Positions 1-4,929 of a stretch of DNA of 4,929 nucleotides are shown in pieces. Where the stretch lies: positions 1 through 4,929 of the IMG/VR virus record IMGVR_UViG_2690316115_000007, one strand, 5' to 3'. The notes below the pieces were generated by a model that was given only the letters and a program-made list of their open reading frames with translations, did no database searches and was not told the DNA's origin. Every line of letters starts with the position of its first letter. Position 1 is the first letter of the stretch. The position numbers and the translations under genes are program-made. This stretch comes from a virus (lineage: Duplodnaviria > Heunggongvirae > Uroviricota > Caudoviricetes).

Positions 1-219
1 CTCCTCCGGCAGAAGCAGAAAAAGCTTATTATGCTTCCATCGGAAACGATGATCTGGCAGCCTGAGTTCACAGATAAAACACTCTCCAGGAAACCCGGGG
101 CGGTTCAATTTCCCTGTCACCTGGTACATTCACTGCATAGCAATACTCCACCTTCGCTTTTCCACCCGGTACAGGAAGCGCAATCAGTTGCGAGCGACGG
201 TAGTGTGTTGTTAAACTGT

Positions 220-804
220 TCATGCGTTAGTTTCTCCACAACCAGAAGCAATCGACGCCACGACGCCCGGAGCTGCACACTCGCGGGCGTTACTCTTTTC
301 CGGCGCACAAAAAACACGAAATAACAGTGTTAAATGCTCCTGCCACTTCGCCATTACTTGGTAGCTGTTCTCTTCGATTTGCTCACGCTCAGCCTGGTCA
401 ATAACTCCATCAGCAGTTGCCTTGCGTAAGTACTGGGAATGCTTGCCAATCCATTCTATTGACTCCATCAGCCGCTGATTAATGTCACCATTGTCAATGT
501 CATCAATGACCACCAGCGGCACAAACACCCCATTACTACGACGGGCTATTGCATCTGTTACATGCCTGGTACCACTGGCATCCTGTAAAACCATGGCCCA
601 CTCAAGTGGAAAAATTTGATCCCCACCGCTACGCAGTCTGTTATGCAATTGATCTTTTGCTGGGGTGATATCATCAGATTTATACAAACCAAGAATTTCT
701 GCTGCTTCCTCATAGCCATGAGGTAAATCAGCAATCGTTCTTCGTATTGCTGCCACCAGCCATGCTGGTTGTTTATCAACTTTCCATTCAGGTTCTTTAC
801 CCAC
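220..804 (-). CDS. CII-position regulatory protein (CII/CP76-like or YdaT-like, tentative), 194 aa, GTG start
   Basis: Longest minus-strand ORF directly downstream of cro (27-nt gap). GTG start at 802-804 is preceded by GAGGAA (revcomp of 812-817) at 6-nt spacing. By eye, the N-terminal segment (AAEILGL...PLEWAMV) resembles the helix-turn-helix region of lambda CII (AEAVGV...LEWGVV). At 194 aa it is about twice the size of lambda CII, so the family assignment is tentative. The 3' end and the region 1-220 are not confidently resolved. Confidence 0.45.
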
Positions 805-831
805 GGTTAATTCCTCATTTCTGTGGTGTTT

Positions 832-1029
832 TTATGCCGCAGCACTGTTAGTCTTTTGATATAAAGACACGTCAACTTTCAGTTTCCCGTTAGTAATTTT
901 TTCTAACTGGTACGCTCGGCCTTCAGGAATAATCTCAGGCCACTCTGAAACAGACGGATGCTTAATACCTAGGGCTTCGGCGGTTTTACAAACTCCGCCG
1001 AAATAATTAATCACGTCGGATTTCCGCAT
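832..1029 (-). CDS. cro: Cro-like small HTH repressor (Cro/YdaS-type), 65 aa
   Basis: ATG at 1027-1029 (minus strand) preceded by GGGAGA (revcomp of 1035-1040) at 5-nt spacing. Transcribed divergently from the repressor gene across the operator region. The protein motif FGG..KTAEALGI..PSVSEW parallels lambda Cro (FGQTKTAKDLGV.QSAINKA), and the short Ala-rich C-terminus is similar. Size and position are typical of cro. Confidence 0.75.
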   Translation of the reverse strand: MRKSDVINYFGGVCKTAEALGIKHPSVSEWPEIIPEGRAYQLEKITNGKLKVDVSLYQKTNSAAA

Positions 1030-1060
1030 TTCTGTCTCCCGTTAAATTACGTTAAGCAGA

Positions 1061-1090
1061 AATGTAGGATATCCAACATGCCAATGTCAA
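1061..1090 (-). promoter_or_regulatory. PR-like promoter driving cro: -35 TTGACA (revcomp of 1085-1090), 18-nt spacer, -10 TACATT (revcomp of 1061-1066)
   Basis: Consensus -35 hexamer and a 4/6 -10 hexamer on the minus strand, about 30 nt upstream of the cro SD. The -10 and spacer lie inside operator O1. The same -35/spacer/-10 arrangement recurs at 1865-1894 on the plus strand. Confidence 0.55.
1062..1079. promoter_or_regulatory. Operator O1: 18-bp near-palindrome ATGTAGGATATCCAACAT
   Basis: Imperfect inverted repeat (half-sites ATGTAGGAT / ATGTTGGAT, 8 of 9 symmetric). Overlaps the -10 of the PR-like promoter. Its exact reverse complement occurs at 1876-1893. Confidence 0.65.
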
Positions 1091-1126
1091 GAATCCTACA
1101 TGGGCATGTGGTAGGATTGCCTACAT
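1084..1126. promoter_or_regulatory. Operator-like sites O2 (about 1084-1101, good half-site ATCCTACAT at 1093-1101) and O3 (1109-1126, tgGTAGGAT/TGCCTACAT)
   Basis: Reiterated ATGTAGGAT/ATCCTACAT-type half-sites. Centre-to-centre spacings from O1 are about 22 and 47 bp, resembling the tripartite lambda OR layout. O3 overlaps the repressor start codon (CCTACATG). A weak rightward -10-like TAGGAT at 1112-1117 could serve as a PRM-like promoter. Confidence 0.45.
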
Positions 1127-1778
1127 GATGAACATGAGTGATCGTATTCGCCAAAGGCGAAAAGAACTGAACCTGACACAACAAGCACTGGCTGATTTGA
1201 CTGGTGTGAACCGTGTCACGGTTACTGGATGGGAAAAGGACGACTACCAACCAAATGGAGCCAACCTTCAAGCCCTAGCCAACGCACTTAAATGCGATCC
1301 TCTGTGGCTTGTTAGCGGAAAAGGCTCGCCTGAACCAAAGATAAATCTAAAACCTGAAATATTCGCAGTTAAAAAAGTCCCCCTAATCTCGTGGGTTCAG
1401 GCGGGTTCATGGACAATGACGGAGCCTGGTGTCAGGAAAGAAGATGCTGAAGAGTGGGTTTATACTACCGCCCTTGTATCAGAAATGGCATTTGCACTAC
1501 GGGTCCGTGGTGATTCAATGACCAATCCCCTCGGCTCACCATCGATACCAGAAGGTTCTATCGTTATCGTAGAGCCAGATATTATTGATACAGAGTGTAT
1601 TAACGGAAAAATCGTTGTTGCCCATATCAATGGTGGGCAAGAAGCGACACTCAAAAAATTTGTTGAGGACTGGCCGAACAGGTATCTCGTCCCACTAAAT
1701 CCTAACTATAAAACTATTGAATGCGGTGAGAACTGCAGAATAGTTGGTCTTGTCAAACAAGTAATAATGGATTTTTGA
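1125..1778 (+). CDS. cI: Lambda-CI-like prophage repressor: N-terminal XRE-type HTH plus C-terminal LexA/S24 autopeptidase domain, 217 aa
   Basis: HTH segment LTQQALADLTGVNRVTVTGWE. Ala-Gly cleavage-site motif WVQA|GSW (codons 93-94, nt 1401-1406) matching lambda VQAGMF. Catalytic Ser in RVRGDSM (nt 1515-1517) and a Lys pair in ATLKKF. C-terminus LNPNYKTIECGENCRIVGLV closely parallels lambda CI [20 protein letters not shown]. Three in-frame ATGs (1125, 1128, 1134) make the exact start uncertain. Confidence 0.9.
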   Translation: MMNMSDRIRQRRKELNLTQQALADLTGVNRVTVTGWEKDDYQPNGANLQALANALKCDPLWLVSGKGSPEPKINLKPEIFAVKKVPLISWVQAGSWTMTEPGVRKEDAEEWVYTTALVSEMAFALRVRGDSMTNPLGSPSIPEGSIVIVEPDIIDTECINGKIVVAHINGGQEATLKKFVEDWPNRYLVPLNPNYKTIECGENCRIVGLVKQVIMDF

Positions 1779-1798
1779 CACATCTTCCTCACTATCGC

Positions 1799-1824
1799 AA
1801 AACCGGGGTATCCCCGGTTTTTTT
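1799..1824. terminator. Bidirectional rho-independent terminator downstream of the repressor gene
   Basis: Perfect hairpin CCGGGG-tat-CCCCGG (1803-1817), extended by AAAA (1799-1802) pairing with TTTT (1818-1821) and followed by a run of 7 T (1818-1824). The upstream A-run gives terminator character on the minus strand as well. Confidence 0.7.
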
Positions 1825-1840
1825 ATGAGCCTATCTTTTT

Positions 1841-1894
1841 ATGTAGGATAACCAACATAAACTCTTGACACTCACATGTTGGATATCCTACATT
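1841..1894 (+). promoter_or_regulatory. PL-like early promoter with two operators: OL-a ATGTAGGATAACCAACAT (1841-1858), -35 TTGACA (1865-1870), OL-b ATGTTGGATATCCTACAT (1876-1893), -10 TACATT (1889-1894)
   Basis: Consensus -35, 18-nt spacer and a 4/6 -10, identical in architecture to the cro promoter. OL-b is the exact reverse complement of O1 and overlaps the spacer and -10. OL-a is a 17/18 match to O1. Confidence 0.6.
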
Positions 1895-2088
1895 TGTTTT
1901 TAGAGTTGTGGTGAATGCGCAGGCTGATGCGCGAAAGACATTGCAGCTATTGCGGAAAAGAGCTGTTCGGCGGGGCAATTAAACGCCCGTGAGAGTCTGA
2001 AATAACCGCAAGCCGGAGATCAGCACCGGTCACCACAACAGCCACTGCTTTGGCGGTACCAGTTTGTACACTTGCTTCCGGCTGGTAC

Positions 2089-2100
2089 CGCTCTTTTTAC
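2089..2100 (+). promoter_or_regulatory. boxA-like motif CGCTCTTTTTAC in the early leader
   Basis: Resembles the lambda nut boxA core CGCTCTTA and the rrn boxA TGCTCTTTAACAA. Sits about 190 nt downstream of the PL-like promoter and immediately 5' of a long hairpin. Confidence 0.3.
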
Positions 2101-2187
2101 AAAACAGAGAAGAGCATCACCGGACGACGGGCTCATAACCCAATCCATCCGGGCGGCTGCCACCGCAGGTGTTCTTCTCTGTTTTGT
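2099..2187 (+). other. Large leader RNA hairpin: 13-bp perfect inverted repeat AAAACAGAGAAGA (2101-2113) / TCTTCTCTGTTTT (2173-2185), extendable to about 20 bp with G-U pairs, enclosing about 50-60 nt of GC-rich sequence
   Basis: Inverted repeat read directly from the sequence. The 3' arm ends in UUUU followed by GUGG. Candidate nut/put-like antitermination element or a tL-type terminator/attenuator between the promoter and the first gene. Confidence 0.4.
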
Positions 2188-2235
2188 GGAGAAACCAACC
2201 GACCTTACAGGGTCGATATGATGAGGAGCAGCAAA

Positions 2236-2598
2236 ATGGCTAGCGAACGCAGTACTGATGTGCAGGCATTTATCGGGGAGCTGGACGGCGGCGTATTTGA
2301 AACCAAAATCGGCGCTGTTCTCAGTGAAGTCGCTTCCGGTGTGATGAACACGAAAACCAAAGGTAAGGTCTCGCTCAACCTGGAAATCGAACCGTTTGAT
2401 GAGAACCGTGTGAAAATCAAACACAAACTCTCATATGTTCGCCCGACTAACCGCGGGAAAATTTCTGAAGAAGACACCACCGAAACGCCGATGTATGTCA
2501 ATCGCGGTGGTCGCCTGACTATTCTGCAGGAAGACCAGGGACAATTACTGACTCTTGCCGGTGAACCTGACGGAAAACTCCGCGCAGCAGGTCATTAA
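2236..2598 (+). CDS. yfdP: YfdP-like prophage protein of unknown function, 120 aa
   Basis: ATG at 2236 preceded by the strong SD GAGGAG (2223-2228) at 7-nt spacing. The upstream in-frame extension to 2050 has no SD and overlaps the structured leader. The 120-aa length and its position immediately before the 274-aa and 178-aa genes match my recollection of yfdP-yfdQ-yfdR in K-12 CPS-53. In-frame ATGs at 2218 and 2221 are alternative starts. Confidence 0.7.
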   Translation: MASERSTDVQAFIGELDGGVFETKIGAVLSEVASGVMNTKTKGKVSLNLEIEPFDENRVKIKHKLSYVRPTNRGKISEEDTTETPMYVNRGGRLTILQEDQGQLLTLAGEPDGKLRAAGH

Positions 2599-2663
2599 TA
2601 TCGTTCTTAATTAACTGATTATTTATCTCATCACTGAATATCTTTATATAGTGAGGACTTATT

Positions 2664-3488
2664 ATGTCTCAGAACTTAGACGCAACCGCAATTAATCAAA
2701 TCCATGCTCTTATTTCTGCTCAGGGTGTTAATGAAATTATCAGTAATATTGGTGCCGATGCTGTGGCATTGCCTGAGAATTTCCGCATTCATGATCTGGA
2801 AAAATTTAATTTAAATCGCTTCCGTTTCCGTGGCGCGCTTTCCACTGCCAGCATCGATGATTTTACCCGTTATTCTAAAGATCTTGCAGATGAAGGCACC
2901 CGCTGCTTTATCGATGCTGATAATATGCGTGCCGTCAGTGTGCTTAACCTGGGTACTATTGATGAACCAGGTCACGCAGATAACACCGCCACTCTCAAAC
3001 TGAAAAAGACAGCACCGTTCTCTGCTCTGTTGTCTGTTAACGGCGAGCGTAACTCCCAGAAGTCACTGGCAGAATGGATTGAAGACTGGGCCGACTACCT
3101 TGTGGGCTTTGATGCTAATGGTGACGCCATTCAGGCAACCAAAGCGGCTGCGGCGATCCGTAAAATCACAATTGAAGCGAACCAGACCGCTGATTTTGAA
3201 GATAATGACTTCAGCGGCAAACGCTCCCTGATGGAGTCTGTCGAAGCGAAGACCAAAGACATTATGCCAGTGGCATTTGAATTTAAATGCGTTCCGTTTG
3301 AAGGTCTGAAAGAACGTCCATTTAAATTACGCCTCAGCATTATCACTGGCGATCGTCCTGTACTGGTTCTGCGCATTATTCAGCTGGAAGCAGTGCAGGA
3401 AGAAATGGCTAACGAATTTCGTGATCTGCTTGTTGAGAAATTCAAAGACAGCAAAGTAGAAACCTTTATTGGTACTTTCACCGCCTGA
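2664..3488 (+). CDS. yfdQ: YfdQ-like protein (DUF2303-type as recalled), 274 aa, function unknown
   Basis: ATG at 2664 with SD GAGGA (2653-2657) at 6-nt spacing. Clean 274-aa ORF. Length and synteny match my recollection of K-12 YfdQ. No catalytic motif recognised by eye. Confidence 0.75.
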
Positions 3489-3500
3489 TTTCATTACTGC

Positions 3501-3522
3501 AAATGCCCCTGCGGGGGCATTT
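3501..3522. other. Stem-loop AAATGCCCC-tgcg-GGGGCATTT immediately after yfdQ; possible weak intrinsic terminator or attenuator
   Basis: 9-bp perfect stem with a 4-nt loop, 13 nt after the yfdQ stop codon. Only a short U-tract follows (UUUAU), so complete termination is doubtful. Confidence 0.4.
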
Positions 3523-3616
3523 ATGGAAACGTAATTAACTCAATAATCGCCGGATGGTGCGGGATTCCTTTTACCCGAATTCAGCGCGGTGCAGCGCATA
3601 TAAAGTGGAGAACGAA

Positions 3617-4153
3617 ATGTCATTTATTAAAACTTTTTCCGGGAAGCATTTTTATTATGACAAGATAAATAAAGACGACATCGTGATTAACGATATCGCG
3701 GTTTCCCTTTCAAATATCTGTCGCTTTGCAGGACATCTTTCACACTTCTACAGTGTCGCCCAGCATGCGGTGCTTTGCCGCCAGCTGGTGCCGCAGGAAT
3801 TTGCTTTTGAAGCGTTAATGCATGATGCAACAGAAGCGTATTGCCAGGACATCCCCGCACCACTGAAACGACTTCTTCCTGACTATAAACGGATGGAGGA
3901 AAAAATAGACGCCGTAATCCGTGAGAAATACGGGTTACCTCCTGTTATGAGCACGCCAGTGAAATATGCCGATCTCATCATGCTGGCAACCGAACGCCGC
4001 GATCTCGGACTTGATGATGGCTCTTTCTGGCCTGTATTGGAAGGTATCCCGGCAACAGAGATGTTCAAAGTGATTCCACTGGCACCGGGCCATGCCTACG
4101 GGATGTTTATGGAACGCTTCAACGAGTTATCGGAATTACGCAAATGTGCATAA
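3617..4153 (+). CDS. yfdR: HD-domain phosphohydrolase, YfdR-like (5'-deoxynucleotidase family), 178 aa
   Basis: ATG at 3617 with SD GGAG (3607-3610) at 6-nt spacing. The HD signature is in LMHDATEAY (His-Asp at nt 3821-3826). The 178-aa length and position match my recollection of K-12 YfdR. The longer 199-aa ORF from 3554 lacks an SD. Confidence 0.8.
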   Translation: MSFIKTFSGKHFYYDKINKDDIVINDIAVSLSNICRFAGHLSHFYSVAQHAVLCRQLVPQEFAFEALMHDATEAYCQDIPAPLKRLLPDYKRMEEKIDAVIREKYGLPPVMSTPVKYADLIMLATERRDLGLDDGSFWPVLEGIPATEMFKVIPLAPGHAYGMFMERFNELSELRKCA

Positions 4154-4869
4154 CTCATGTAGTTAGTTTTTCTGGCGGGAGAACATCTGCATATCTTGTT
4201 CACCTGATGGAAGAACAAAGAAAGGCTGGCAATAACGTCTGCTACACCTTTATGGATACCGGTTGCGAACATCCGCTGACATACCGCTTTATTCGGGAGG
4301 TTGTGAAGTTCTGGGGCATACCGCTAACTGTGTTGCAGGTCGATATAAATCCAGAGCTTGGGCAGCCAAATGGTTATACGGAATGGGAACCAAAGGATAT
4401 TCAGACGCGAATGCCGGTGCTTAAACCGTTTATGGACATGGTTAAAAAGTACGGTACGCCATACATCGGCGGCGCATTCTGTACTGACAGGCTAAAACTC
4501 ACCCCTTTCACGAAATATTGCGATGACCATTTTGGGCGAGGGAATTACATCACATGGCTGGGTATTCGTGCAGACGAACCCCGCAGGCTGAAACCGAAAC
4601 CGGGCGTCCGGTATCTCGCCGAACTGTCAGATTTTGATAAGTCGGATGTTATCCGGTGGTGGCGTAAACAGCCGTTCGATTTACTTATCCCTGAGCACCT
4701 CGGGAACTATGTTTTCTGCATCAAAAAGTCAACGCAAAAGCTGGGGCTTGCATGTAAGGACGAACCTGGCCTGATGCGGGTTTTTAATGAACTGGTTACA
4801 GGCCAACACGTCAGGGACGGTCTGAGGTGTACTGACAATAGCGGACACTACCATTTGTTCTTTTTTTAA
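4144..4869 (+). CDS. PAPS-reductase-family PP-loop protein (phosphoadenosine phosphosulfate reductase-like), 241 aa
   Basis: PP-loop-like motif VVSFSGGRTS (nt 4165-4188). FMDTGCEHPLTYRFIREV closely parallels E. coli CysH ILTDTGYLFPETYRFIDEL. The start codon overlaps the yfdR stop (ATGTGCATAA, 4144-4153), indicating translational coupling. Confidence 0.8.
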   Translation: MCITHVVSFSGGRTSAYLVHLMEEQRKAGNNVCYTFMDTGCEHPLTYRFIREVVKFWGIPLTVLQVDINPELGQPNGYTEWEPKDIQTRMPVLKPFMDMVKKYGTPYIGGAFCTDRLKLTPFTKYCDDHFGRGNYITWLGIRADEPRRLKPKPGVRYLAELSDFDKSDVIRWWRKQPFDLLIPEHLGNYVFCIKKSTQKLGLACKDEPGLMRVFNELVTGQHVRDGLRCTDNSGHYHLFFF

Positions 4870-4929
4870 GCAGCTATCTGATGATATTTTTCCCTGAAGG
4901 CTGCCGGGGAGATATTCCCCAGACGAGAG

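Follow-up and report, generated by a model that had tools for sequence, protein, structure and literature searches.

Both genes considered here have described counterparts. In Escherichia coli K-12, YfdR, a product of the CPS-53 prophage, is reported to be a weak nucleotide phosphohydrolase that has weak affinity for nucleotides and binds domain I of DnaA (PMC4776307), and replication initiation is inhibited when it is overproduced along with YfdQ and one of the two proteins YfdS and YfdT (PMC4776307). NinC of phage lambda (lambdap64, 290 aa) is encoded in the nin region, where its gene follows ninB. The stretch analysed here, called the window throughout, is the 4929-bp IMG/VR virus record IMGVR_UViG_2690316115_000007, positions 1 to 4929, and represents the whole of a draft contig, CYAY01000102.1 (GCA_001286405.1). 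The yfdR gene of the window has the same upstream genes, yfdP and yfdQ, as that of K-12; the gene downstream is, however, ninC and not yfdS, which encodes a DUF551 protein (PMC4776307). We consider, with a probability of about 0.8, that the locus holds a copy of lambda ninC disrupted by the insertion sequence (IS) IS600 next to an intact prophage yfdR, that the two genes are independent modules, and that DNA-directed counter-defence is the likeliest role of the NinC family. The features on which this reading depends are as follows, in window coordinates.

3617-4153, + strand: yfdR, intact, encoding a 178-aa HD-domain protein annotated as a 5'-deoxynucleotidase (from identity to K-12 YfdR, RefSeq name and PHROG 318).
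3821-3826, + strand: HD dyad of YfdR, His69-Asp70, aligned with the HD of the HD-fold protein PDB 2gz4 (E = 1e-13).
4144-4153, + strand: 10-nt overlap ATGTGCATAA, which contains the ninC-like ATG (4144-4146) and the yfdR stop codon TAA (4151-4153) (seen in the sequence, in RefSeq and in IMG/VR loci).
4144-4822, + strand: ninC pseudogene, the native portion of which encodes residues 1-226 of the 292-aa PP-loop orthologue of lambda NinC (from identity to lambda NinC and alignment to intact copies).
4171-4188, + strand: PP-loop SGGRTS, residues 10-15 (from the family pattern S-x-SGGR(T/S)S).
4255-4293, + strand: DTGCEHPLTYRFI motif (DTG at 4255-4263, TYRFI at 4279-4293), common to reductases of 3'-phosphoadenosine 5'-phosphosulfate (PAPS) and adenosine 5'-phosphosulfate (APS) and to SspD (from alignments).
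4708-4710, + strand: TAT codon, which replaces Cys189 of GNCxxC by Tyr (Cys in 109 of 109 full-length homologues, invariant in the divergent alignment A3).
4823-4929, - strand: terminal 107 bp of IS600 (IS3 family), beginning TGAGGTGTACTG... and having a TG... terminus (from alignment to annotated IS600 copies).

The open reading frame (ORF) at 4144-4869 had been taken for a 241-aa gene in the first-pass annotation, but it is not intact: it is a chimera made of 226 residues of a 292-aa protein and 15 residues encoded by the IS. When 5426 complete E. coli genomes were searched with megablast, the similarity to intact prophage copies of the gene stopped at 4822, up to which the window (4144-4822) shares 99.4-99.5% DNA identity with an intact E. 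coli prophage copy. The last 107 bases, searched within a 115-nt query (4815-4929), match the end of IS600 with about 97% identity in 2885 E. coli genomes. Three-way alignment placed the junction at 4822/4823, with intact ninC (...GACGGTC) to the left and IS600 (TGAGGTGTACTG...) to the right, and the minus strand at 4866-4929 encodes the tail of the IS600 transposase (last 20 codons), ...SPAAFREKYHQIAA*. Because homology ends at 4822 and IS600 begins at 4823, residues 227-241 and the stop codon are IS-encoded; in comparison with the intact reference gene (L001 6645-7523, 292-aa product), the insertion of IS600 after codon 226 removes the last 66 residues of ninC and appends 15. The contig ends within IS600, which indicates that the assembly broke in the repeat, and a tidy 241-aa ORF at a contig end can therefore be a gene-IS chimera. 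The identical 241-aa chimera is found on five contigs in all, that is, the window and four other short contigs, metagenome contigs included, while none of the GTDB species-representative genomes gave an exact match to the ninC/IS600 junction. A natural hybrid (P0004, 294 aa, on 20 contigs) joins NinC residues 1 to ~232 to a DUF551-type C-terminus (PF04448), and its breakpoint, a few codons from the IS600 site of the window, suggests a recombination-prone spot in ninC.

Judged from its sequence, the gene that follows yfdR is the orthologue of phage lambda ninC. Over 224 aa (residues 3-226, E = 4e-150), the window protein and lambda NinC share 83% identity, the similarity ending at residue 226 because IS600 interrupts the gene, and both proteins have the SGGRTS, DTGCEHP.TYRF, FCTDRLK, GIRADEP and GNC..C motifs; lambda NinC is intact, whereas the window copy is cut after residue 226 and carries the C189Y substitution. 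An intact close homologue of the window protein (P0002), which was the query of the IMG/VR locus comparison described below, matched PHROG 33262 with an E value of 1e-92 and PHROG 424 with one of 2.6e-91, both of them PHROGs of the lambda NinC family. The NinC family is large, with 4625 clusters when grouped at 90% identity and 1604 representatives when grouped at 50%, and its members are usually 278-292 aa long, a length of which the window copy, with its 226 native residues, falls short. The first-pass annotation had read the PP-loop as SGGRTS in place of SGGKDS, and had recognised the DTG...TYRFI motif; both readings agree with the alignments, residues 10-15 being SGGRTS, the motif lying at nt 4255-4293, and genuine SspD having SGGKDS. 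Since S-x-SGGR(T/S)S is present in 119 of 120 close NinC homologues, the "non-canonical" PP-loop is a signature of the family and not an oddity of the window copy.

The conservation within the family also shows what the window copy has lost. Of the top 120 homologues, 109 are full-length, and each of these has the GNCxxC motif; the residues that are invariant down to ~30% identity include S10, G12, S15, T39, G40, E42, C113, G140, R142, D144, E145, C189, C272 and C276, while C192 is nearly invariant in the same divergent alignment. Three of the conserved cysteines C113, C189, C192, C272 and C276 are absent from the window copy, C189 being changed into tyrosine and both C272 and C276 being gone, and the missing residues 227-292 hold one strand and two helices that were modelled with a predicted local distance difference test score (pLDDT) > 90. 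The C189Y substitution and the loss of C272/C276 and of the modelled C-terminal elements make it very probable that the truncated copy is inactive. One might suppose instead that the chimeric ORF still yields a working enzyme, for which the N-terminal nucleotide-binding domain would suffice, given that its PP-loop, DTG and GIRADE motifs are intact and that it persists in identical form on five contigs, some of them metagenomic. This is highly improbable in view of the well-modelled and invariant parts that are missing, of the substitution at an invariant cysteine, and of the frequent decay that prophage copies of ninC seem to undergo, frameshifted or truncated alleles being common among them; alleles frameshifted from about residue 170 (P0028, P0051 and P0072), for example, recur in the databases.

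The upstream gene is, by comparison, well preserved. YfdR of the window is identical to K-12 YfdR at 175 of 178 residues, the substitutions being S55R, N151K and D170E, and H69-D70 are kept, so that its description as an HD-domain protein in the first-pass annotation was right. Its match to PHROG 318 is strong (E = 3e-109), that to the Pfam YfbR-like family, at 24.4 bits, is slightly below the cut-off of 25.9, and GGAG is found upstream of its ATG. The stop/start overlap ATGTGCATAA reported at 4144-4153 is there exactly, with yfdR and the downstream ORF out of frame to each other. RefSeq annotation shows an identical overlapping pair in intact E. coli prophages, and of the 47 IMG/VR loci with the yfdR-ninC pair, 46 have the same 10-mer at the junction. 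In K-12, yfdR is joined by an analogous ATGCGCATGA to yfdS, a gene unrelated to ninC, which indicates that the overlap is part of the yfdR 3' end and is usable by any downstream module. In lambda as well, the start of ninC overlaps the stop of the preceding gene, ninB, in the sequence ATGA, and the overlap in the window thus reflects the general compaction of phage operons. It is ordinary tight packing with probable translational coupling, and it provides no evidence of a dedicated complex between an HD and a PP-loop protein.

Such a dedicated pair, in which YfdR and the PP-loop protein would be stoichiometrically co-expressed and act on nucleotides, DNA or tRNA, had been proposed in the first-pass annotation, and the conserved overlap, the existence of 280 complete E. 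coli genomes with the two genes side by side and the plausibility of nucleotide handling for both proteins would be in line with it. The comparative data do not support it, however, because both genes occur with other neighbours. Complete E. coli genomes that carry yfdR number 2948 and those with the ninC allele of the window 486-539, ninC following yfdR in only 280 of the former, and the K-12 junction leads to yfdS, with its DUF551 product. In the 80 closest IMG/VR ninC loci, ninC is preceded by yfdR in 47 cases, which belong to a single prophage type, by ninB in 13 and by another gene in 20; the last group includes unrelated proteins of 192 or 147 aa, for which no Pfam, NCBIfam or PDB match was obtained, and the ninC alleles behind them are 92-93% identical to P0002. 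No scorable upstream ORF in the species-representative loci was YfdR-like (phmmer, E <= 10), the long members of the NinC family showed no fusion to an HD domain, and in the window itself the NinC partner is truncated. Further settings of ninC are between genes for a family-A DNA polymerase and an SNF2 helicase and near that for a DUF4942 protein. We regard a dedicated pair as very unlikely: yfdR and ninC are independent mosaic modules, and their pairing is one arrangement among several. In a related prophage, a 265-aa ORF (L052 7750-8547, MIPAPLAF...HYHGGPITP...) sits about 0.9 kb 3' of ninC; a DpdA/TGT-like identity was considered for it and dropped, as it has no Pfam, NCBIfam or PDB match.

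The K-12 comparison also settles a conjecture that yfdS and yfdT of K-12 are fragments of the gene downstream of yfdR. The window is homologous to K-12 DNA, at 95%, up to 4151, a position inside the yfdR stop codon. When the 241-aa or the 292-aa protein was searched with tblastn against the K-12 yfdR-dsdC interval, the best E value was 0.32, and YfdS, YfdT and YpdJ have no similarity to the NinC protein of the window. Together with the assignment of YfdS to DUF551, these results refute the conjecture.

Two observations on the distribution of ninC may be added. NinC with 78% identity to the query, the same value as that of lambda NinC, was found behind an ORF matching NinB (phmmer, E = 2e-101) in assemblies assigned to unrelated taxa, namely Pseudomonas, Oceanobacillus, Shewanella, Bradyrhizobium, Kitasatospora and Segatella (loci L085-L095, L099, L111, L137, L143 and L144), and several of the contigs are about 48.4-48.5 kb long and have roughly 1x coverage; these are almost certainly contaminations of public genomes with lambda control DNA. 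In E. coli genomes, 73 of 580 places that match the ninC allele of the window are on plasmids of about 93-102 kb, and the carriers are thus probably phage-plasmids.

With regard to the function of NinC proteins, the closest described enzyme is SspD, which transfers sulfur in the SspABCD system of DNA phosphorothioation. The SspD profile of PADLOC was the best defence-family match for all 23 NinC-family members compared (23/23), and NinC matched it with an E value of 2.2e-15 at positions 2-123 of 277, i.e., in the N-terminal half. A search of genomes with a NinC profile recovered genuine SspD genes, one of which directly follows an SspC gene: in a metagenome-assembled genome (MAG) of Gemmatimonadota (L153), sspC lies at 631-3963 (E = 8e-161) and sspD at 3995-4771 (E = 4e-90, positions 1-228). 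NinC is 34% identical to this SspD over 148 aa of the N-terminal half, and its C113, C189-x-x-C192 and C276 align with cysteines of SspD. NinC proteins thus appear to be PP-loop enzymes of the ATP-pyrophosphatase fold that are homologous along their whole length to SspD, and the shared cysteines are probably ligands of a metal or of an iron-sulfur cluster. There are also clear differences: at the position of the canonical SGGKDS of SspD, NinC has SGGR(T/S)S; about 16 residues are inserted in NinC, which also has one more C-terminal cysteine, C272, than SspD; and NinC is phage-borne and solitary, whereas genuine SspD is encoded beside SspC. No sspB or sspC neighbour was found in the window, in lambda or in the other ninC contexts examined. 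Judged by the profile scores, NinC is a relative of SspD and not its orthologue. A roughly 1100-aa ORF lies likewise directly upstream, as judged by layout, in L150, L152, L156, L158-L160, L163 and L164, loci that were retrieved only because the NinC profile extends to SspD, and the loci of this layout within L150-L164 come from MAGs of Gemmatimonadota, Latescibacterota, Phycisphaerae and others. The DndC profile was matched by 12 of the 23 NinC members with an E value of only 9e-4, and no dnd genes were found near ninC.

The N-terminal similarity to PAPS reductases, from which the first-pass annotation had named the protein PAPS-reductase-like, holds within narrow borders. The match to Pfam PF01507 (PAPS_reduct), 35.4 bits against a cut-off of 22.5, covers residues 5-73 only (positions 2-67 of 175 of the profile), and similarity to CysH and APS reductase in the PDB (6vpu, 2goy and 1sur) is confined to about the first 75-80 residues, with a differing genomic context. 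The PP-loop of CysH is degenerate (SSSFG), in contrast to the SGGR(T/S)S of NinC, and none of the 120 NinC homologues has the catalytic ECG[LI]H motif at the C-terminus, which reads G-S-C-S-E-S-C-E in the family. A register match between GNCxxC of NinC and CxxC of APS reductase is not claimed, as the alignment ends near residue 80. It could be argued from the above-threshold Pfam score, the PDB matches and the PHROG category "auxiliary metabolic gene" that ninC encodes a true PAPS/APS reductase serving as an auxiliary metabolic gene of sulfur assimilation. Considering the short range of that similarity, the missing tail, the much better score of the SspD profile (E = 2e-15), the fusions of NinC to DNA methyltransferases and the location of ninC in phage modules for DNA replication and recombination, we find this explanation extremely improbable.

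The fusions provide the second clue to the function. Of the ten longest family representatives tested, six carry NinC and a DNA N6-adenine methyltransferase in one protein. Either domain may come first, and the methyltransferases belong to two unrelated families, Dam (PF05869) and D12 (PF02086). Such fusions fit the role in DNA modification suspected in the first-pass annotation. One such NinC-Dam fusion is p0018 of Vibrio phage 75E35.1, belonging to the podoviruses of V. crassostreae, whose NinC module is 55% identical to the E. coli protein over residues 3-282. This module is complete, with SGGRTS, GNCVFC and GSCSESCE, and is followed by a C-terminal Dam domain, whereas the window NinC is unfused and truncated. 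Piel et al. reported that a related phage escaped from the Dnd system of the host when p0018 and p0019 were moved into it (preprint 10.1101/2021.05.05.442762), a result that has been cited as a phage PAPS reductase evading Dnd (PMC13551039). The homology to SspD, the methyltransferase fusions and the two-gene anti-Dnd swap make DNA-directed counter-defence the likeliest role of NinC, which would act on DNA in the defence of the phage against phosphorothioate-based restriction, and we propose this role tentatively, at somewhat less than even odds. Action on tRNA or other RNA by thiolation- or lysidine-type chemistry, in place of action on DNA, seems unlikely because the closest sequence family is that of a DNA enzyme, SspD, because the recurrent fusion partners are DNA adenine methyltransferases, and because no RNA-binding domain such as THUMP or PUA was detected in NinC.

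A more specific possibility, to which we attach less weight than to DNA-directed counter-defence in general, is that NinC is an "orphan SspD", a cysteine-rich phage PP-loop enzyme that would work on DNA or on the phosphorothioation machinery of the host and thereby defeat restriction of the Dnd/Ssp type. The phage DNA might be modified with the help of borrowed host partners, or NinC might serve as a decoy; the change of SGGKDS into SGGR(T/S)S would then belong to this specialisation, and the window would hold only a dead copy.

Several points weigh against the interpretation as a whole. The anti-Dnd swap involved two genes, and the contribution of the NinC domain was not isolated; in addition, lambda can do without ninC in the laboratory (PMC10695390). 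Phosphorothioation requires an ATPase partner (PMC12914056), and NinC lacks SspB/SspC or DndD/DndE partners nearby. The metal or cluster site is a putative one, suggested by the conserved cysteines. Concerning the window, the far side of IS600 lies outside it, and an intact second ninC may exist elsewhere in the genome. In addition, nothing ties the activity of YfdR in replication initiation to NinC.

The surroundings of the pair in the window are those of a lambdoid prophage, with the following genes upstream.

1125-1778, + strand: cI-like repressor (window ORF).
2236-2598, + strand: yfdP (window ORF).
2664-3488, + strand: yfdQ, a DUF2303 gene (window ORF).

The gene order yfdP, yfdQ, yfdR, ninC is that of the 3' part of the early operon of a CPS-53-like lambdoid prophage, the ninC of the window thus following yfdR in a yfdPQR operon in contrast to the ninB-linked gene of lambda. 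Between the cI-like repressor and yfdP (1779-2235), the window has no ParA-family gene, while the closest intact E. coli prophage has one in the interval compared (L001 2495-4736), so that the operon is mosaic at this point as well. The 128 nt that separate yfdQ from yfdR contain a perfect 9-bp GC-rich hairpin at 3501-3526, AAATGCCCC-TGCG-GGGGCATTT; the 55 nt from 3486 to 3540 that include it fold at -17.3 kcal/mol (z = -3.5 versus shuffles), and no T-run comes after it. The hairpin might serve in processing, in attenuation or as a Rho-related site inside the operon. A scan of the window against Rfam produced no match, and a scan for promoters and terminators gave no useful signal within the yfdR-ninC pair.

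Taken together, the locus is an ordinary one, as both genes are known and their pairing is a common prophage arrangement. The first-pass annotation described it correctly at the level of motifs, while its 241-aa gene is not intact, its stoichiometric pair has no comparative support and its K-12 conjecture is refuted. The idea of counter-defence is not new either, since it has been published for "phage PAPS reductases" (PMC13551039; 10.1101/2021.05.05.442762). The locus itself therefore matters little, but the wider NinC family retains moderate interest: the homology to SspD with its four aligned cysteines, the methyltransferase fusions and the anti-Dnd swap turn the possible role of NinC in counter-defence into a hypothesis that would be testable by lambda genetics.

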